IMG/VR virus record: IMGVR_UViG_3300015202_000003
Coordinates: 1-21,412 of that record
Direction: 5' to 3' (one strand)
DNA from: a virus
Length of the DNA stretch: 21,412 bases
Shown here one piece after another: positions 2,936-17,566 of this stretch (positions are counted from its first letter, which is position 1; every line of letters starts with the position of its first letter). The position numbers and the translations under genes were made by a program. The notes below the pieces were generated by a model, which was given only the letters and a program-made list of their open reading frames with translations, did not search any database and was not told where the DNA came from.

Positions 2936-3034
2936 ATGAAAAGAACCACATCCAAAAGAACATAAAAATGGGGTGAAGAATGATAATAGGTTAGAGAATT
3001 TAGAACTTCTTTGTCCTAATTGCCATTCTTTTAC
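2936..3034 (+). pseudogene. Internally deleted HNH endonuclease remnant interrupted by the tnpB element (frame resumes at 4990-5044)
   Basis: ATG start MKRTTSKR, then in another frame 2961-3034 reads HKNGVKNDNRLENLELLCPNCHSFT. Removing 3035-4989 gives in-frame CHSFT-RQW. Confidence 0.8.
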
Positions 3035-3197
3035 ACTAAATTGTATTTGAAAGCCCGTTCCTTTAGGGACGGGATGAAAAATTTATCGTTGCGAAGCAGC
3101 GAAACTAATTAAAATTTGAAACTTATTTCTCCCATGTCCGTTTATAATAAGAAAGAAGTTGTTATAAAATGTTAATTGCCTCAATAACTTTAAAGTG

Positions 3198-3815
3198 ATG
3201 ATTACTACAACAAAAAAGCGGGAGATGGCTGATTATTATTTGAAAGGTTTCTCCCTTACAGAAACAGCTAAGGAATTTGGAATTAATTCAGCAACTGTTC
3301 ACAATATTCTCAAAAAGTTAGGGATACCCCGAAGAACTGTGTCAGAGGGAAATTCTCTAAAATGGTTGAATTCTGATTTTCGTGATAATCAGGTAGATAA
3401 GAGGGTTGGAGTTTCATCAGGGGCTAAAGGTAAAAGTTGGAAATTAAAACATAGGAAATACTCCCCAAAAATGATAGGTGCAGGTAATCCTCAATGGAAA
3501 GGTGGGGTTACTAAACTAAGTTCTTTAATTAGATCTTTACCAGAATATATATTGTGGAGAGAAAAAATATTTAAGAGGGATAATTGGACTTGTCAAATCT
3601 GTTCTGATAGAACTTGCGTAGGTAATAAAGTTATTCTTCATGCTGATCATATTTACCCACTTCATAAATTAATTGAGGAGAACCAGATTAAATCCGTTCT
3701 AGAAGCTATTTTATGTGAACATCTATGGGAAATAGATAACGGAAGATGTCTTTGTATAGATTGCCATAAAAAGACAGATACTTTTGGGAAAAATGCTAAA
3801 AAGCTTTCGATATAG
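3198..3815 (+). CDS. HNH endonuclease with N-terminal HTH and NUMOD3-like motif
   Basis: HTH (SLTETAKEFGINSATVHNIL), GNPQWKGG, CQIC, HADHI, NGRCLCIDCH. Alternative GTG start at 3195. Confidence 0.88.
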   Translation: MITTTKKREMADYYLKGFSLTETAKEFGINSATVHNILKKLGIPRRTVSEGNSLKWLNSDFRDNQVDKRVGVSSGAKGKSWKLKHRKYSPKMIGAGNPQWKGGVTKLSSLIRSLPEYILWREKIFKRDNWTCQICSDRTCVGNKVILHADHIYPLHKLIEENQIKSVLEAILCEHLWEIDNGRCLCIDCHKKTDTFGKNAKKLSI

Positions 3816-4905
3816 GATATACCCAAATAAAATACAACAAGATACGCTAAACAAAACGTTTGGGTGTTCTCGTTTCATTTATAACTGGGGCCTATCTCTT
3901 AAAATAAGCAGTTATATGAATACTGGTAAAGGATTGTCACGGTTTGCTCTTGACAAAGACCTTCCTAAATTAAAAGCAGAAAACCCTTGGCTTTCGGAAG
4001 TTCCTTCCCAAGTTTTACAACAAAGTTTGGTTGACCTCGATAAAGCCTTCACTAACTTTTTTAGAAAAACTACCAAATTTCCAAACTTTAAGAAAAAAAG
4101 AACAGATGCGTCTTGTAGATTTCCACAGGGTATCAAGGTTGATTTTGAAACTAACATAATATCTTTACCCAAACTGGGAAAAGTAAAAATTAAACTTAGT
4201 CGTAAATTTGTAGGCACAATTAAATCTTGCACAGTATCAAGAGGTTCTACTGGAAAGTTCTACGTATCAATTTTAGTAGATGATGGGGTCGGAGAAATTC
4301 CGAAACTTCCAATTCACCAAGACAGAGCAATTGGTGTTGATGTGGGACTTATTGATTTTATTACGACCTCTAAGGGAGAGAAAGTTAAAGCTCCTAAGTT
4401 TTATCGCGGTTTAGAAACTAAACTCAAGGAGGCCCAAAGGTTTGAGTCGAGAAAGAAGAAAGGTAGTAACAACAGAAAAAAAGCGAGACAAAGAGTAAAC
4501 CTTATTCACGAAAAGATTAAGAATTTAAGGTCTGATTTCCTTCATAAAACAAGCACTCGATTAGTTAATGAAAACCAAGTTATTTGTATCGAGGATTTAA
4601 ATGTGAAAGGAATGATGAAGAACCGAAAATTGTCTAAGAGTATCGGAGATGTGGGTTGGTCTGAATTTTTTAGGATGTTGGAATACAAATCTGAAAAAGT
4701 TGGAAAAACAGTTTTGAAGATTAATCGTTTTCAACCGAGTTCAAAAATATGTTCTTGTGGGGAAGTTAACAAAATCCTGACTCTTTCTGATAGAAAATGG
4801 ACTTGTTCTAATTGTAATTTGACTCACGATAGAGATGTATTAGCAGCACAAAATATTCTCAAGTTCGCTTTTTTAGAAAATTTAACGCGCAGGGACACTG
4901 CGTAG
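3793..4905 (+). CDS. tnpB: RNA-guided endonuclease TnpB
   Basis: N-terminal FRYRIYPN...FGCSRFIYN, RuvC-I GVDVG, RuvC-II IEDL, zinc finger CSCG/CSNC, RuvC-III DRDVLAAQN. The three acidic catalytic residues are intact. ATG at 3793 overlaps the HNH gene by 23 nt. Confidence 0.96.
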   Translation: MLKSFRYRIYPNKIQQDTLNKTFGCSRFIYNWGLSLKISSYMNTGKGLSRFALDKDLPKLKAENPWLSEVPSQVLQQSLVDLDKAFTNFFRKTTKFPNFKKKRTDASCRFPQGIKVDFETNIISLPKLGKVKIKLSRKFVGTIKSCTVSRGSTGKFYVSILVDDGVGEIPKLPIHQDRAIGVDVGLIDFITTSKGEKVKAPKFYRGLETKLKEAQRFESRKKKGSNNRKKARQRVNLIHEKIKNLRSDFLHKTSTRLVNENQVICIEDLNVKGMMKNRKLSKSIGDVGWSEFFRMLEYKSEKVGKTVLKINRFQPSSKICSCGEVNKILTLSDRKWTCSNCNLTHDRDVLAAQNILKFAFLENLTRRDTA

Positions 4906-8460: not shown

Positions 8461-9060
8461 ATGACGGAAAATAATAGTTTTTTAAAGGTGATAGGAATAT
8501 TTGGCTTCTGTAATTCTGGTAAAGACGAAAGTTTTTTGCAAATCCAACGCATACTTTACGAAGCTAAAAAAATAAGAGTTCATAGAATCGCTTTAGCGGA
8601 CGAATTAAAAAGAGAGTTTTGTTTAGAGACTGGTTTAGAATTTGAAGAGTTAGAAAAAAACAAAAATTCATACAGAGTTGAACTTCAAAAATTAGCAGAT
8701 TTAAGAAAAAAAGAAAACTCGAATTACTGGGTAGATAAAACCTATGAAAAATTAAATTTTCTTTGTGTTCCCAACCAAGAAAACTATTTTGTGTTTACGG
8801 ATGTTAGATATAAAAACGAATATAATTTTTTAAAATCTGTTTCTCTCAACACAAAATTTGTTAGAATACATAGACCTTCTTCTAAACCTTTTAATTCTCA
8901 TTCAAGTGAAACAGAATGGGCTTATCTCCCTGTAGACTACATATTAGACAATTATAAAGATAAACCTCATCTTTACGGAGAATGGCAAAAAGTTCTTTTT
9001 TATTTCGAGTGGTTGAGAAACAGTTTTTCTATTGTGAAAACAAAGAACGAAGATTCTTAG
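8461..9060 (+). CDS. Deoxynucleoside monophosphate kinase (T4 gp1-like P-loop kinase)
   Basis: IGIFGFCNSGKD P-loop, ALADELK, TDVRYKNE and HSSE motifs. Confidence 0.85.
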   Translation: MTENNSFLKVIGIFGFCNSGKDESFLQIQRILYEAKKIRVHRIALADELKREFCLETGLEFEELEKNKNSYRVELQKLADLRKKENSNYWVDKTYEKLNFLCVPNQENYFVFTDVRYKNEYNFLKSVSLNTKFVRIHRPSSKPFNSHSSETEWAYLPVDYILDNYKDKPHLYGEWQKVLFYFEWLRNSFSIVKTKNEDS

Positions 9061-9144
9061 TTTTTTAATTAAAATGAAAAAAGCAATTTTTTGGTTTGTG
9101 AAAGGTTTGAAAATTTAGGTGTTAAAGAGATTTCTAAACGGGCT

Positions 9145-9238
9145 GTAGGTGTTTAATTACATGACGTTGAATACCTCGTTGCGGGAATCCCCGCCACGGA
9201 TTAGCGCAGTAGGTGTTTAATTACATGACGTTGAATAG
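9145..9238 (+). CRISPR. CRISPR mini-array: two 30-bp repeats and one 34-bp spacer, no cas genes in window
   Basis: GTAGGTGTTTAATTACATGACGTTGAATA(C/G) at 9145-9174 and 9209-9238. Spacer 9175-9208 is CTCGTTGCGGGAATCCCCGCCACGGATTAGCGCA. The 3' end resembles the ATTGAAAC/G handle of class 1 repeats. Confidence 0.8.
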
Positions 9239-9342
9239 ACCCACAGATTTTCTTATAACTGAAGTTAAAAAAACTAAGAATCTTCGTTCTTAGTTCTAAG
9301 TCTTTAAATCAACTTCTTAAAAAGAGAGGGGGTTGGTAAAAA

Positions 9343-9537
9343 ACGGAATCAAATTCGGTTTGGGTAGTGATAGCTCAAAGTTATCCTGATAGTTCAAACA
9401 TAAGGGCTGTTTTCAAAGCAGAAGAAGACGCAAAATATTATGTAACAAAACAGCAAAAAGAAGAAGAGGAAAAAAAGGTTAAATATTTTTTGTATCACTC
9501 TTATTCTTTTTATGTTGAGAAGTGGGATGTTGATTAG
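9343..9537 (+). CDS. Small phage protein with a non-canonical or mutated (ACG) start; alternative GTG at 9367
   Basis: Frame reads ESNSVWVVIAQSY...IRAVFKAEEDAK...FYVEKWDVD. GAGGGGG lies about 10 nt upstream of ACG. Confidence 0.6.
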   Translation, partial: TESNSVWVVIAQSYPDSSNIRAVFKAEEDAKYYVTKQQKEEEEKKVKYFLYHSYSFYVEKWDVD

Positions 9538-9552
9538 GGTTAAATTTAATTT

Positions 9553-9604
9553 CAGTTATTAAATAAACCAAGAAACTTTTCCTCTCTTCAAAACGTATGA
9601 ATAA
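9553..9604 (+). promoter_or_regulatory. Putative promoter upstream of tRNA-Arg
   Basis: Matches 2725-2775 at both ends (CAGTTATTAAA and CGTATGAATAA). Confidence 0.5.
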
Positions 9605-9718
9605 TCGGAGGCTTTCCAAGAAGGGTTTAAATTTCATAGGGGGGAGATGCGCCCGATGTCGGACGTTTGTTTCTCCTATTTGACTTATAATTTAAATTTT
9701 CTTTGGACTGCCTATTTT

Positions 9719-9790
9719 GGCCTGTTAGCCTAACGGATAAGGCGACAAACTTCTAATTTGTTGATAGAGGTTCGATTCCTCTACGGGCTA
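9719..9790 (+). tRNA. tRNA-Arg(UCU), CCA not encoded
   Basis: Acceptor GGCCTGT/ACGGGCT, D stem GCCT/AGGC, anticodon arm ACAAA-CTTCTAA-TTTGT, T arm AGAGG-TTCGATT-CCTCT. Confidence 0.95.
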
Positions 9791-9992
9791 TTGAAAAACT
9801 TAGTGGCAAAGAGATGTATTTAGCATCGTCCTATCTTTTCGGGTTTAACCTTCAACTTTTAGTCTGAAACGGAAAAGATAAGTTTTTCTTCTTTTAAAAC
9901 CAAACCTAAATAAAAAATTTGATACTTTATAACAAAGGGATAAAAGACGGGGAAGATTCTATGTTTATCTTTTACTCTTTTTTTCAAACACC

Positions 9993-10514
9993 ATGAAATT
10001 ATCTGAAGCATTAATTCAAAGAAAAGATTTAACTAACAAAATCAACGATTTACAAAACCGTTTAATTTCCAATTCTACGGCTTACGAGGGTCAAGCGCCT
10101 TCAGAAAACCCGTTAGAGTTGTTAACAGAGATGGGAAATTGTGTGGAAGAACTTTCTCTTCTAATTAAAAGAGTGAATCATACGAACAATGTTTCTTTAA
10201 TAGAAGAAACAAAAGAAACTATTTCGGATGCTGTTGTTAGACGGGACATGTTAAAAATGAGAATGGGCCATTTGGAAACGGCTTTACAACATTCTTCTAA
10301 TACAAAGAGAAGTCGTTATAGTGCTTCTTCTGATGAACCTAAGTTAGTTTCTGTAATGGAACCAAAGGATTTAAGAAAAAGTTTGGATTCTTTTTATAAG
10401 TTGTATCGTGAATTAGATTTGCTAATTCAAGCGGCGAATTGGAAATATGACTTATTAGAGTTAAAAGGAGAGGTTAAAATTAAAGAGACAAAGAACTTTG
10501 CACCTTTGTTTTAA
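9993..10514 (+). CDS. DIP1984-family-like coiled-coil protein
   Basis: MKLSEALIQRKDL...EGQAPSENP...IKRVNHTN...ISDAVVRRDML...RELDLLIQAANW matches the family pattern as I recall it; short extra C-terminal tail. Confidence 0.8.
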   Translation: MKLSEALIQRKDLTNKINDLQNRLISNSTAYEGQAPSENPLELLTEMGNCVEELSLLIKRVNHTNNVSLIEETKETISDAVVRRDMLKMRMGHLETALQHSSNTKRSRYSASSDEPKLVSVMEPKDLRKSLDSFYKLYRELDLLIQAANWKYDLLELKGEVKIKETKNFAPLF

Positions 10515-10527
10515 ATTTTAAAAAACT

Positions 10528-10980
10528 ATGTCTTTAGATGTTTATTTAAATAGAAAAGGGGTTCAAAACTTAGAGCCTAAGGAAGCTATTTTCATTAGAG
10601 AAAACGGTTCTACAAAAGAAATTAGCAGAGAAGAGTGGGATTTAAACTATCCTAACAGAGAGCCGATTATGGTAACAATTCCTTCTGATAACGAACAAGT
10701 TTTTCAAAGAAACATAACTCATAATTTGGGAAGAATGGCTTCTCAGGCGGGGATTTACGAGCATCTTTGGCGTCCAGAAGAGTTGAGCATAACAACAGCT
10801 AACGAGTTAATTTCTCCTTTAGAAAAGGGTTTAAGACAGTTGAAAGAAGACCCTGAACACTTCAAAAAAAATAATCCTGAAAACGGTTGGGGCGATTACC
10901 AAGGTTTATTAGATTTTGTTGAGGAATACTTGGAAGCGTGTAAACTTTATCCAGATGCTTCAGTAGAGGTTTCAAGGTAA
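10528..10980 (+). CDS. Conserved phage hypothetical protein
   Basis: MSLDVYL, NITHNLGRMA, LWRPEE and NPENGWGDY motifs. Confidence 0.85.
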   Translation: MSLDVYLNRKGVQNLEPKEAIFIRENGSTKEISREEWDLNYPNREPIMVTIPSDNEQVFQRNITHNLGRMASQAGIYEHLWRPEELSITTANELISPLEKGLRQLKEDPEHFKKNNPENGWGDYQGLLDFVEEYLEACKLYPDASVEVSR

Positions 10981-11045
10981 ATAAAATAAGTTAGAAGTTA
11001 CTTTTTAAAAACCAATCAATTTAAAATTCTGAACTAAAATTCAGA

Positions 11046-11281
11046 GGTAGTTTTCTTTTTTGTTCGAGAATATTCTTCTTGTTTAGGAGAAGTTAAATCT
11101 TAAACCGTTTGAATGAAGCGTTATTTATTCACCCGATTAGGAACGAAAGTTTCTTTATCATCAAATACATCTGCTTTTATTGCACTATTGATTGTGTAAA
11201 ATTTAAAATGTAAAGAGTAACTTCGGGTAAAATTTAATAAGTAAAAGGTAAAACCTTGATATTAAAACAAAAAAGAAGATG
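11046..11281 (+). ncRNA. Candidate structured ncRNA with 7-nt periodic repeats
   Basis: Terminal stem 11050-11064/11266-11280; hairpins at 11074-11092, 11110-11131, 11139-11154 (GAAA loop) and 11180-11199; cUUCGg at 11221-11226; eight NNTAAAN-like heptamers at 11195-11253. Confidence 0.65.
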
Positions 11282-11332
11282 AGGGTGAGGCAAGGGGCAA
11301 ATTTTAAATTGAATTGTTTGAAAAAACAAATT

Positions 11333-11593
11333 ATGAAAAACACAGAAAATACTGAAAACACAGAAAATACTGAAACAGAAGATTACACTCACTATTTTGA
11401 AATTGGTGATGTGGTTACGTTGAAATCGGGCGGTCCAAATATGACGGTTTTAAAATTGAACGCTTCAACGGATTCAAGATGTTTAAATCCTAACAGTAAA
11501 AATTACCTTTATTGTATTTGGTTTGACAAAGAAAACACTTTCATTGGAGAGTATTCTTTCCATTACGAAACTGTGGAAAGAGTTAGAAATTAA
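11333..11593 (+). CDS. DUF2158/YodC-like small protein
   Basis: FEIGDVVTLKSGGPNMTV...CIWFD. ATG at 11333 preferred over 11279. Confidence 0.8.
   Translation: MKNTENTENTENTETEDYTHYFEIGDVVTLKSGGPNMTVLKLNASTDSRCLNPNSKNYLYCIWFDKENTFIGEYSFHYETVERVRN
11339..11374 (+). repeat. 18-bp tandem duplication encoding (NTE)x4
   Basis: AACACAGAAAATACTGAA twice. Confidence 0.9.
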
Positions 11594-11604
11594 AAAACAT
11601 TAAG

Positions 11605-11958
11605 ATGCAACAAATTAAAATTCCATCGGAGACTCTTTTAGAGAAGTTAAAAGAGAACAGACATAAACACGAAACAGATTATTTGAAAGCTGTTGAGGGT
11701 TTTCAAGAAGATTTGCTTCAGACTTTATCGGCTTTGTTAAAGAAGGCTAAGACTAAAGTAGAAGATGTTCCGTTATTTATTCCTTTAGAAAAACCAGTTT
11801 CTTATTTGAAAGAATATGATAAAGTAATTCAAATGTTAGAATTAACAGAAGAAACCCATGTTGTTTTAAGTTCAATCGAGTTTTCTCATTTCGTATTAGA
11901 TGATTGGCATTGGAAACAGCAATTTGCAATATCTACTGCTAAATATTTAGGTAAATAA
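11605..11958 (+). CDS. Conserved large-phage hypothetical protein
   Basis: LLEKLKENRHKH...PVSYLKEYDKVIQMLE...FVLDDWHWK. Confidence 0.85.
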   Translation: MQQIKIPSETLLEKLKENRHKHETDYLKAVEGFQEDLLQTLSALLKKAKTKVEDVPLFIPLEKPVSYLKEYDKVIQMLELTEETHVVLSSIEFSHFVLDDWHWKQQFAISTAKYLGK

Positions 11959-11982
11959 AACCTCATAAATTAAAAAAATACC

Positions 11983-12615
11983 ATGGAAAACATACGTTCA
12001 AAATTTGATACTTTGTTAGATTTTAATTCTGAAAATCTAACGCAAGAAAAACTGAAAGAACTAAAGTTGCTTTTAGAAAAAAGAGATGAGAAAGAAATTG
12101 TTTTCGTTCATTTTTCTATTGGCGATGGTGGGGTTTCTTTTTCTATGACAGATTCTTACGGCCCGACTTTAACAATTTCTTCTTCTCATTTTGGAAATAA
12201 CAGTCGAAAACAGGTTTTACATTTAAGCAGAGAATCTTTGTCTCAATTAAGACAGTTTTTTGAAGTTGCCGACAAAGCTGACTATTCTGAAGAGTATGTT
12301 TATCCTTTAAGATGCTCTGAGATGAAGACACCAGAACAAAAAAGAGAGGGGGATATTTATTCTGCTGTTTCTTCAATAAACTGTTGCGAAAAGTTTTTAA
12401 AAGCACTCCAAGACGGTGATTTTAGTTTATATCCTCTTCTTCAATCAAACCCAGAAATGCTTTCTTCTATGTTAGAAGAACAAAAAGATGATTTGGCCAA
12501 GAAGCAGTTTAATTTACTGTTTCTAAATCCTTCAAACGAAGAGTTGGAAAAATCCAGTTTAAAATTAAAAGAAGACTCTGAAAATCCATCCCGTATAAGA
12601 CACATCTTTGGGTAG
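11983..12615 (+). CDS. Hypothetical protein
   Basis: 210-aa ORF. Confidence 0.8.
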   Translation: MENIRSKFDTLLDFNSENLTQEKLKELKLLLEKRDEKEIVFVHFSIGDGGVSFSMTDSYGPTLTISSSHFGNNSRKQVLHLSRESLSQLRQFFEVADKADYSEEYVYPLRCSEMKTPEQKREGDIYSAVSSINCCEKFLKALQDGDFSLYPLLQSNPEMLSSMLEEQKDDLAKKQFNLLFLNPSNEELEKSSLKLKEDSENPSRIRHIFG

Positions 12616-15231: not shown

Positions 15232-15305
15232 CGAGGAGGAGCCATTTGGTTAAGGGCAAAAAGCTTATAACTTTTCATAAACTGATTCGATTTCAGTCTC
15301 CTCGA
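15232..15305 (+). tRNA. tRNA-Ile(UAU), atypical
   Basis: Acceptor CGAGGAG/CTCCTCG, D stem GCC/GGC, anticodon arm AAAAG-CTTATAA-CTTTT, T arm ACTGA-TTCGATT-TCAGT. G at position 8 and an A-T pair closing the T loop are non-canonical. Confidence 0.8.
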
Positions 15306-15472: not shown

Positions 15473-17566
15473 ATGTTAGAACAAGAAGAAAATTTTCCTG
15501 AAATTCCTTTAGCAATAGAGATAGAAGATAAAATAGAAGAGACTAAAGCAGAGACAGAAACTCCAAAACCTAAATTGCACGAAAAAGATAATTTTAATTT
15601 AATTCCTGAAATTACGCTCACTGAATTGCAAGAAAAAGGTATTCGTTTTTTATTAAGTAGAAAGGGTGGTATTTTAAATCTCTCAACTGGGTCAGGGAAA
15701 TGTCTCGGTTTTAATACTCCTGTTTTAATGTTTGACGGGACAGTTAAAATGTCCCAAAACATCGAGGTTGGTGATTTATTGATGGGGCCGGACTCTAAGA
15801 AAAGAACTGTTGTTTCTTTGGGTAGAGGTAGAGAAATAATGTATGAAGTAAGACCTTTTGATAAGGGTATAATTTGGAGTTGCAACGAATCTCACATTTT
15901 ATCTTTAATAAGGCCCTTGACGGGGGAAGTATCTAATGTTTCAATTGTGGATTTAAAAAAAGAGTGCGATGAAATAGAGGATCAAGTTTTTACAGGGTGG
16001 CGCTCTCCTGTTTTTGTTGAAGGACAAGAAAGAGTTTTAGGAGAAAAGAGATTTTTCAATTTTAGTTTGGTTTCTTTAGGAGAAGGGGATTATTACGGTT
16101 GGACATTAAAAGAAGACCCTTTATTCCTTTTAGGCGATTTTACTGTTACACACAACACGTTTTTGGCCGCTCATGCAGGGATTCATTTTATGGATTCTTA
16201 TGAAAATACGAGGTTCGTTTGTTTTGTTCCCGCAGAAGCCAATAAAGTATGGAGAAAAACATTTAGAGCATTAAAAGAACCTTACGTTTTATTTGAAGCT
16301 AAAGGGGTTGAAAAATTCGATTGTTCTTTTATAGAAGACGCGAGAGTTTTCATTTTTAATTTCAGCAGCATGGAAAAATTTGAAGCTGAAATAATAGAAA
16401 GACTAAAAAATTACGAGTGTATTTTTCTGGTAGATGAAGCGCACGCTTTGAGCAATTCGACTTCGAGGCAATCTCGTTCTCTGAAGTATTATAGAAAATA
16501 TGCACGTTTAACATGGCTTCTTACGGCAACAAGTGTTCGTTCTTTACCTGCTATTAGAGGTTTATTTAATTTAGTTGATTTTGTTTTACCGGGTTATTTA
16601 GGTTCTTGGTCTAAATTTAAAGACGATTTCTTAATCTGGCGCTGGAATATCATTAGAAGTTCTAATGGAAAAACAATAAAAACAGAGGAAATAATTGCTC
16701 TCAAAAACGAGAGTGTTTTAAAAGAAAAATTATCTCTTTTAATGTTTGTAGGAACTGTTAATTACAACGTAGATTTTCATTATCACACATGCTCTTTGTC
16801 GGAGGAGGAATTTTCTTATTACAGGGAAGCGGGGGCGGGACTGTTGAAAAATTTCGAGCGCAAAGAATTTGCGAGCCGCTTGCACGATTTACAAAGAGTA
16901 GTAGATAATTCGATGGATGGTTTGCCCGAATCTTTACAAAAGAAAATTTCATCTAAAGAGCGATTATTATTAAAAGTTATAGAAGAAAAGATTTTAAGTA
17001 AAAATGAAAGCGTTATACTTTTTGCGGAACATATATCTACTCTTCAAAGATTGGAGTTTATTTTAAATATTGCTAAAAATAGAGGCTTAATAAACTTTTC
17101 TCAGATTTTAAAAATTACGGGTTTAGAGAATAAGAAAGACAGGGATAAAGCGGAAGACAGTATTATTCCCGGCACAATATTGTTGGCTTCACGCGCCAGT
17201 TCTCAGTCTCGAAATCTGCAAGCAGCGTCTCATGTAGTTTTTTACGACTTGCCTTTCTCTCTTTCGGTTTTTCTTCAATCTTGTGGCAGGATCACGAGAA
17301 TAGATTCAAAACATGAAAGACAATCAATTCACATTTTTACTGCATTAGAAACAGTAGATTTTTACAAGTTGCTTTTAGTCAAAGAGAACGCCCATGTTTT
17401 TACTCAAATAATCGAGGGAAATTCAAACCTCCCCGAAGTTGCTCAGATTGACAGGACATTCATAGGAGATTTAAGAAAGCGCCTTCTTTGGGGTTTTAAA
17501 CATAAAAAAATTCTCTCTTTAAAAGAATTGAGTGAACAAGCCGCACAAAAAGATTTAAAAGATTAG
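15473..17566 (+). CDS. SNF2-family (SF2) helicase/ATPase with intein
   Basis: LTELQEKG Q-motif, STGSGK|T Walker A split by the intein, LVDEAH, LLTAT, SRNLQAASHVVFYD, QSCGRITRI. Confidence 0.9.
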   Translation: MLEQEENFPEIPLAIEIEDKIEETKAETETPKPKLHEKDNFNLIPEITLTELQEKGIRFLLSRKGGILNLSTGSGKCLGFNTPVLMFDGTVKMSQNIEVGDLLMGPDSKKRTVVSLGRGREIMYEVRPFDKGIIWSCNESHILSLIRPLTGEVSNVSIVDLKKECDEIEDQVFTGWRSPVFVEGQERVLGEKRFFNFSLVSLGEGDYYGWTLKEDPLFLLGDFTVTHNTFLAAHAGIHFMDSYENTRFVCFVPAEANKVWRKTFRALKEPYVLFEAKGVEKFDCSFIEDARVFIFNFSSMEKFEAEIIERLKNYECIFLVDEAHALSNSTSRQSRSLKYYRKYARLTWLLTATSVRSLPAIRGLFNLVDFVLPGYLGSWSKFKDDFLIWRWNIIRSSNGKTIKTEEIIALKNESVLKEKLSLLMFVGTVNYNVDFHYHTCSLSEEEFSYYREAGAGLLKNFERKEFASRLHDLQRVVDNSMDGLPESLQKKISSKERLLLKVIEEKILSKNESVILFAEHISTLQRLEFILNIAKNRGLINFSQILKITGLENKKDRDKAEDSIIPGTILLASRASSQSRNLQAASHVVFYDLPFSLSVFLQSCGRITRIDSKHERQSIHIFTALETVDFYKLLLVKENAHVFTQIIEGNSNLPEVAQIDRTFIGDLRKRLLWGFKHKKILSLKELSEQAAQKDLKD
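15701..16156 (+). other. 152-aa mini-intein (no homing endonuclease) in Walker A
   Basis: Starts CLGFNTPVLMFDG, block B CNESH, ends VTHN with +1 Thr; residues 77-228. Confidence 0.92.

Follow-up and report, generated by a model that had tools for sequence, protein, structure and literature searches.

Comparative genomics has uncovered conserved orphan RNAs with several helices and pseudoknots (raiA, ROOL, OLE, HEARO), some of which have a fixed protein-gene neighbour. The trp and hut leaders of Bacillus subtilis are cis-regulatory mRNA leaders bound by the beta-rich ring proteins TRAP and HutP, respectively; the HutP sites are UAG triplets which, together with four spacer bases, have a period of 7 nucleotides (nt). 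A third arrangement is that of Ro60 (Rsr) with the bacterial Y RNAs (Yrn1, YrlA), including the Salmonella rsr-yrlBA-rtcBA operon (PMC4201824; PMC7790460). Here we describe a gene-RNA pair of a phage. It lies in a window (the whole stretch of DNA that was analysed, 21,412 nt) corresponding to the initial 21.4 kb of a virus record of 198 kb in IMG/VR (IMGVR_UViG_3300015202_000003, positions 1-21,412). In this window a gene of the DIP1984/DUF6847 family (9993-10514) is followed downstream, on the same strand, by a gap (11046-11300, + strand) which comparative sequence analysis showed to be a structured RNA, a diverged, AT-rich member of an RNA family associated with DIP1984 genes. By the same kind of comparison, the family was shown to be a widespread, one-to-one genomic companion of DIP1984/DUF6847 genes that is absent from Rfam 15. 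The features of the pair are as follows.

9993-10514, + strand: DIP1984/DUF6847-family gene encoding 173 amino acids (aa) in four long helices (Pfam, NCBIfam, PDB, alignments, AF2 model)
11046-11300, + strand: structured non-coding RNA of ~255 bases, assigned as a diverged phage member of the family (profile, signature, helix P1, pairwise z-scores, fold)
11046-11050, + strand: 5' motif GGTAG (family consensus AGTTGGTAG), located by script; the G-TA columns are invariant in alignments A2 and A3
11051-11064, + strand: 5' strand of P1, pairing with 11266-11279 in 14 contiguous base pairs (bp), one of them G-U
11069-11073, + strand: 5' strand of P3 (AATAT), pairing with ATATT at 11259-11263; threaded by eye on locus L109 and the consensus
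11075-11105, + strand: putative H-type pseudoknot with stems S1 (11075-11079/11088-11092, CTTCT/AGAAG) and S2 (11081-11087/11099-11105, GTTTAGG/CTTAAAC)
11139-11154, + strand: hairpin AGGAAC-GAAA-GTTTCT, 6 bp, one of them G-U
11195-11253, + strand: two runs of four heptamers (N-K-T-A-A-N-N) parted by TCG and ending at the conserved ACC (11253-11255)
11259-11279, + strand: 3' strands of P3 (11259-11263) and P1 (11266-11279)
11281-11297, + strand: 3' signature GAGGGTGAGGCAAGGGG (pattern GAGGGYGRG-N2-4-GGGG)

To define the family, 80 bacterial genome loci encoding relatives of the protein were collected, and the DNA behind the genes was compared. All-against-all blastn revealed a stretch of ~220 nt with 70-85% identity across phyla, and in 73 of the 80 loci an nhmmer profile located this element directly behind the stop codon, on the strand of the gene. 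The element, whose length is ~200-235 nt, was also present in most of the 80 metagenome loci, among those with enough flank, and in several phage loci. In each of five whole genomes (2.4-11.3 Mb) a single copy of the RNA and a single DUF6847 gene were found, next to each other. A control search also flagged a DUF6847 gene in Deinococcus radiodurans, and the pair is present in strains of Acinetobacter, Paenibacillus and Leptolyngbya. With a covariance model (R1), all 48 further sources that were tested, among them four viral contigs and AT-rich contigs from metagenomes, yielded full-length copies. Two RNA copies behind one protein gene were seen at loci L090 (3488-3689 and 4289-4494) and L113 (2970-3181 and 3290-3473), and L053 carries two RNA signatures behind one protein gene. 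An earlier note on the window, made from its letters, had mentioned repeat-rich tracts directly downstream of genes of this family and had named the upstream DIP1984-like protein as partner of the RNA. The remark on the tracts proved correct and general, and the choice of partner is supported by the adjacency and the one-to-one co-occurrence.

The family element is non-coding: at the tRNA-array locus L021 no + strand open reading frame (ORF) of at least 30 aa begins within the first 58 nt of the element, and the single + frame located deeper inside (3018-3275) continues into the next tRNA. Conserved single-stranded motifs (AGTTGGTAG, AGCG, GCCCAG, ACTACC and GAGGGTGGG..GGGG) lie between variable helices. 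RNAalifold predicted three nested closing helices in the family alignment, and compensatory changes were found at 15 of the 16 outer pairs in a broad alignment and at 21 of 35 pairs in a cyanobacterial alignment. The helix homologous to P1 covaries in the family, as do both stems of an H-type pseudoknot in which CCC/GGG is interleaved with CCAAC/GTTGG. A conserved RNA with a covarying terminal stem downstream of homologous genes, for which the earlier note had suggested to look, is present. Many members also carry a T-arm-like GGTTCGAnTCC module. When the family elements were searched against Rfam 15, no family other than tRNA was matched at E<=1, and in the literature searched no paper on this RNA or on the function of DIP1984/DUF6847 was found.

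The assignment of the protein was borne out by matches to Pfam DUF6847 (PF20935; 3.9e-36, 124.5 bits, cut-off 27), to NCBIfam DIP1984_fam (NF038048; 3.1e-39, 134.5 bits, cut-off 70) and to PDB entry 3KDQ (8.8e-21). The family is large (1,398 cluster representatives at E<=0.001), and 9993-10514 is its only gene in the phage genome. All signature residues of the family are present, namely the N-terminal MKLxEAL, RxNxTN and the C-terminal QAANW; the invariant columns are M1 K2 L3 E5 A6 L7, N62 T64 N65 and Q146 A147 A148 N149 W150. The extra C-terminal tail that had been noticed before was seen in the alignment as 17 residues that relatives lack. In the AF2 model (pLDDT 78) the protein forms an all-helical bundle of four long helices, and the only structural match was to 3KDQ. 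The 3KDQ entry contains four chains, and the crystal chain superimposed poorly on the compact monomer model (TM 0.41, rmsd ~17 A), which hints that the crystal form may be extended or oligomeric, perhaps intertwined. Domain and structure searches found no nuclease signature in the protein. A HEPN-like reading based on R-x4-6-H was rejected, since the His of RxNHTN varies among relatives.

Membership of the phage gap was examined against the family as defined by alignments A2, A3 and A7. A sequence-only profile (R2) was built from 18 AT-rich or diverse members, with the phage left out; the MAFFT alignment gave no consensus pairs. R2 had one significant match in the window, at 11132-11304 (21.3 bits, E 3.8e-6, model positions 43-211; next best 0.37). 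The pattern GAGGGYGRG-N2-4-GGGG occurs once in the window and in none of 100 shuffles, and it is unique on both strands of the 198-kb genome (33% G+C, estimated completeness 88%, nearly all genes on the + strand). Among DIP1984 loci, 121 have this signature, which is without exception on the + strand and, at the loci that were checked, follows the stop codon by ~180-230 nt. Helix P1 of the phage lies flush against GGTAG and ends one base before GAGGG, as in the family, while a random-anchor null gave at least 10 pairs in 0.3% of cases. The distance between the two motifs is 235 nt in the phage versus a family median of 184. Global alignment gave z-scores of 6.0 against L166 and 3.6 against L109, above all 200 dinucleotide shuffles and all other phage intergenic regions, and the stretch from AGTAAC to GATATTA is near-collinear with L109.

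The layout of the phage element agrees in large part with what had been read from the letters. The gap was described as free of ORFs, and indeed no + strand ORF of at least 40 aa was found between 10980 and 11279; two 52-aa minus-strand ORFs overlapping 11203-11392 look spurious. The closing stem of 12 perfect pairs (11053-11064/11266-11277) is the core of P1, which extends to 14 contiguous pairs with a further G-U possible at 11050/11280, and the hairpin with the GNRA loop was read at 11139-11154. In the case of the proposed cUUCGg loop the motif CTTCGG is present (11221-11226), but it has its own C-G closing pair only, with no stem behind, and a hairpin was not demonstrated. Similarly, the structured RNA placed at 11046-11281 stood, but its 3' end moves to ~11300. 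On the + strand 11046-11281 folded at -52.1 kcal/mol (z -3.17, 1 of 200 shuffles equally good), and the minus strand of the same gap gave z -1.9. Enforcing P1 and P3 costs 1.9 kcal/mol over the minimum-free-energy structure, and stem S2 of the pseudoknot is present both in that structure and in the centroid. The two pseudoknot stems that the phage sequence can form (5 bp and 7 bp), read from a single sequence, would have the topology and position of those of the family. A long-range GGGC/GCCC pairing (CGAA/TTCG in the phage) is compatible with the sequences but near-invariant, hence unproven. The Rfam search that had been recommended gave no match over the gap, either at gathering score or at E<=10, and a terminator/promoter scan reported zero terminators in 9000-12500.

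The bacterial and viral neighbourhoods of the module point to tRNA and RNA repair. Genes for tRNA flank it in 20 of 80 genome loci, 27 of 80 metagenome loci and 5 of 10 viral loci; arrays of at least five tRNAs occur in 10 of 80 loci, and at 8 of 80 RtcB is no more than 2.5 kb away. In many cyanobacteria the module is located within arrays of 5-21 tRNA genes, and two viral loci (L091 and L092) have it inside clusters of 7 and 14 tRNAs. In three such arrays (L021, 2501-3267; L091, 2416-3244; L092, 2390-3304) 14-50 nt separate the start of the protein gene from the tRNA before it, and the distance from the end of the RNA to the following tRNA is 0-16 nt. Because the 3' end of the RNA abuts the next tRNA, the RNA is likely cut from the tRNA-operon transcript by tRNA-processing enzymes, and the arrangement suggests that in such arrays both the mRNA and the RNA may be released by tRNA processing. 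Flanking ORFs included RtcB (three times), Tpt1 (twice), RNA_ligase (twice) and RlaP (once), and an Acinetobacter record (L089) has the gene order rbn-rtcB-x-DIP1984-gap-rtcA. In the parts of the report on cyanobacterial tRNA arrays that were returned by term searches, induction by translational stress is described for the arrays together with rtcB and hypothetical genes linked to them, and unnamed protein genes are described as embedded in the arrays and co-induced (PMC8421152); these passages contain no mention of the RNA or of the DIP1984 family. One gene of that work, all4315 of Anabaena PCC 7120, may be the DIP1984 homologue, in which case its induction by translational stress is already on record. 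The likeness to the arrays described in those passages is one of location: in many cyanobacterial, metagenome and viral loci such arrays house the DIP1984 gene together with its RNA, whereas the phage has a single tRNA beside the module and no array.

Among described systems, Ro60 with its Y RNAs is the nearest arrangement, and the likeness is one of arrangement by analogy only, not of membership. In both cases a protein gene is adjacent to a dedicated non-coding RNA whose ends are closed by a long stem. The tRNA-like T-arm module of many DIP1984-RNA members, the adjacency of RtcB/RtcA at L089 and the presumed link to tRNA damage are shared as well. In contrast, the DIP1984 partner is a four-helix protein of 150-170 aa and not a TROVE/vWA ring, and the RNA has its own GGTAG, H-type pseudoknot and G-rich 3' tail. 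No Y RNA was matched in Rfam at E<=10 over 10900-11400, and the phage genome has no TROVE gene. TRAP and HutP share with the phage RNA the short RNA units at fixed spacing, and the 7-nt period of HutP matches that of the phage, whereas the DIP1984 pair is made up of a free-standing knotted RNA and of a helical protein that would bind to it. The proteins neighbouring the phage RNA belong to DUF6847, phrog_4019 and DUF2158, and a TRAP or HutP fold was not found among them. Like raiA, ROOL, OLE and HEARO, the DIP1984 RNA is an orphan defined by covariation that has many helices and a pseudoknot; unlike these RNAs it is smaller (~200-260 nt), has a strict single protein partner and no match in Rfam 15. 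RAGATH-27 (RF03100) was ruled out as well, with no match at E<=10 over 10900-11400 and none at E<=1 in L021, L045 and L077.

The explanation that we favour, and regard as rather likely, is that the RNA family is the companion of the DIP1984 proteins, that the two are bound to each other as a particle, and that this particle is linked to tRNA or RNA repair. The protein and the RNA would probably form a protein-RNA particle that has so far escaped description. The helical DIP1984-like protein would bind the RNA to give a stable particle, in which the knotted core (P1-P3 and the pseudoknot) could serve as scaffold and the repeat-bearing 3' domain would be the part most likely to bind several copies of the protein. 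More speculatively, the particle may act on the axis of damaged tRNA and translational stress, in roughly the way that Ro60 with Y RNA does next to RtcB, and in a tRNA-carrying phage it may keep translation going when the host cuts or depletes tRNAs. The full form of this proposal must be considered doubtful: a new, very widespread ribonucleoprotein of bacteria and phages, accompanying spare-tRNA arrays and RtcB-type repair genes and acting on damaged or depleted tRNA, a functional counterpart of Ro60-Y RNA made from unrelated parts, used by large phages to counter tRNA-cutting defences of the host, with the 7-nt units setting the protein copy number.

Several observations weigh against the favoured explanation or against parts of it. 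The structure models R1 and R3, which derive from GC-richer bacteria, gave no full-length match to the phage: almost the whole model was skipped, and the matches obtained at 11237-11308 were local and weak (6.6-9.4 bits). In an nhmmer search with bias correction 11274-11303 was the best hit in the genome but had an E value of 7.6. When 33 other gaps of the phage genome were folded as a control, z-scores of -2 to -3 were common; fold energy alone is therefore not exceptional and proves little. No close phage relative was found: blastn against GenBank phages matched tRNA only, a 20-nt exact pattern taken from the gap had zero matches in IMG/VR, and in word-based protein searches the best relative had at most 48% identity. 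In the phage the DIP1984 gene and the RNA are parted by an unrelated gene. As to the RNA-repair link, the phage genome has three tRNAs, and no RtcB, RlaP, Tpt1 or TROVE gene was found when it was searched. The sole RNA-repair-type gene detected (G000:C1 95318-95923, L180; 441-aa frame, RNA_ligase PF09414, 1.2e-13) is 85 kb distant from the module. The neighbours are also unrelated at most bacterial loci, so that the repair link is an enrichment and not a rule.

A narrower version of the favoured explanation, and a sub-case of it more than an exclusive rival, concerns the heptamers. The earlier note had described two runs of four heptamers in exact 7-nt register, and their positions and register were confirmed: run 1 is TGTAAAA/TTTAAAA/TGTAAAG/AGTAACT (11195-11222) and run 2, after a 3-nt step (TCG), GGTAAAA/TTTAATA/AGTAAAA/GGTAAAA (11226-11253). 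Self-identity was 0.50 at lag 7, 0.46 at lag 14 and 0.39 at lag 21 compared with ~0.3 elsewhere, and four TA at period 7 appeared in 5% of mononucleotide shuffles. The periodic array of the phage is real, and it may be a protein-loading track. If the heptamers were single-stranded binding sites, the RNA would wrap a ring- or rod-shaped DIP1984 homo-oligomer with one protomer per 7-nt unit, in the manner of TRAP and HutP, whose targets are spaced triplets. We hold this wrapping model as a tentative possibility. It agrees with the exact register of eight heptamers and with the alignment of run 2 to the family region GUuACAu-GuGUAca-aUuUAuu-aaUuAaU-uUUAcuA-CC, where K-U-A units are ~7 nt apart and which the RNAalifold consensus leaves unpaired. 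Its other supports are a comparable K-T-A series, with phase slips, in the nearest AT-rich relative (L109), and the four chains of 3KDQ together with the poor fit of its chain to the monomer model, which suggest an extended or intertwined oligomer. Against it, an autocorrelation over the whole family, with crude anchoring, had no peak at lag 7 (0.281 versus 0.28 at lags 5 and 6), and TA runs of at least four at period 7 were found in only 2% of members. In the phage ensemble the heptamer runs were not especially unpaired (0.45-0.51 versus 0.43 for the rest of the RNA), and the fold of the DIP1984-like protein, a bundle of helices, bears no relation to those of TRAP and HutP. Relative to the bacterial members the heptamer array is probably expanded.

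The RNA might also work without being bound by DIP1984, either as a cis-acting or processed 3' element (a stabiliser, a processing platform of tRNA operons or an autoregulatory site) or as a tRNA-mimic decoy. The constant placement of the RNA immediately 3' of the gene and in the same orientation, its abutting the next tRNA in arrays and the T-arm-like module of many members would all fit such a role. We nevertheless consider it unlikely: the co-occurrence of gene and RNA is strictly one-to-one across phyla and in phages, the RNA has been kept in the phage and in L090 despite a separation of ~0.5 kb from the gene, and second copies exist in L090, L113 and L053. The size and pseudoknotted complexity of the RNA also go beyond those of a simple stabiliser.

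In type III systems the antitoxin RNA consists of tandem repeats of ~34-36 nt, located upstream of the gene for an endoribonuclease toxin. A type III-like toxin-antitoxin or abortive-infection pair, in which the RNA would neutralise the protein, could be imagined here from the small protein gene adjoining a repeat-bearing RNA and from the frequency of the pair on mobile elements and phages. This is very improbable, as the RNA is a single, non-tandem, knotted unit located downstream of the gene, the protein lacks a nuclease signature, and RNA-repair operons of a housekeeping-like kind, such as that of L089, contain the pair; membership in type III systems was accordingly rejected. The idea that nothing in the gap is functional, P1 being a terminator-like T-run in an AT-rich spacer complementing by chance the A-rich leader of the next gene, could appeal to the folding of other phage gaps and to the failure of the bacterial covariance models, but it is hardly credible in view of the G-rich signature unique in a genome of 33% G+C, the flush position of P1 against both family motifs, the profile match and pairwise z-scores, and the location downstream of the genome's sole DUF6847 gene.

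Adjacent to the pair are three further features.

9718-9791, + strand: tRNA-Arg(TCT), ~200 nt upstream of the DIP1984-like gene (ARAGORN; Rfam tRNA, 66.6 bits)
10528-10980, + strand: intervening gene of 150 aa, phrog_4019, function unknown (PHROGs, 6e-15)
11334-11593, + strand: gene for a small DUF2158-family protein, start moved from 11279 to the ATG at 11334

The distance between the stop codon and the RNA is 5-130 nt in the family and 532 nt in the phage. The only comparable spacer is that of the phage locus L090 (~520 nt), which holds different small ORFs. Relatives of phrog_4019 (L002-L008) had no synteny with the locus, no DIP1984 gene and no RNA signature, and 10528-10980 was for that reason rejected as a component of the module. 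The simplest reading is that this gene was probably inserted between the protein gene and the RNA, a later insertion having been supposed already in the earlier note; the spacing normal for the family and the relatives that lack either partner fit this. On the other side of the RNA, the start of the DUF2158 gene was reconsidered. In the 104-aa frame starting at 11279 the Pfam DUF2158 match begins only at residue 42 and the PHROG match at residue 34, and the 3' signature of the RNA overlaps the ATG at 11279. Because 11279-11300 lies within the RNA, 11334 is the more likely start. A small AT-rich hairpin (TTGTTT-GAAA-AAACAA) is located within 11305-11333, between the 3' end of the RNA and the ATG at 11334.

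Elsewhere in the window, an IS605/IS607-type element (3195-4905) consists of a gene for a 206-aa helix-turn-helix (HTH) protein (3195-3815) followed by one for a 373-aa TnpB with OrfB_IS605, Cas12f1-like TNB and HTH_OrfB_IS605 domains; a guide-like RNA is expected just past 4905. The 697-aa SNF2/DEAD-type helicase encoded at 15473-17566 is split by a Hint/homing-endonuclease-associated domain, that is, an intein, and a tRNA-Ile(TAT) lies just upstream (15232-15305). Outside the window, four gaps of G000:C1 had low fold z-scores (42609-42855, -7.2; 100759-101033, -5.0; 29907-30238, -4.5; 85092-85504, -4.05) and are candidates for more structured RNAs or strong terminators.

With these results a protein family that had a crystal structure but no function gains a dedicated, covarying, pseudoknotted RNA companion that is absent from Rfam 15. 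The phage contributes a diverged, AT-rich member with a probably expanded heptamer array and, probably, an inserted gene. This member demonstrates that gene and RNA stay paired even when physically separated, and it has led to a corrected start of the next gene. The placement of the module in tRNA arrays and RtcB operons offers an entry into the role of spare-tRNA arrays and of bacterial RNA-repair operons, and likewise into how phages protect translation.

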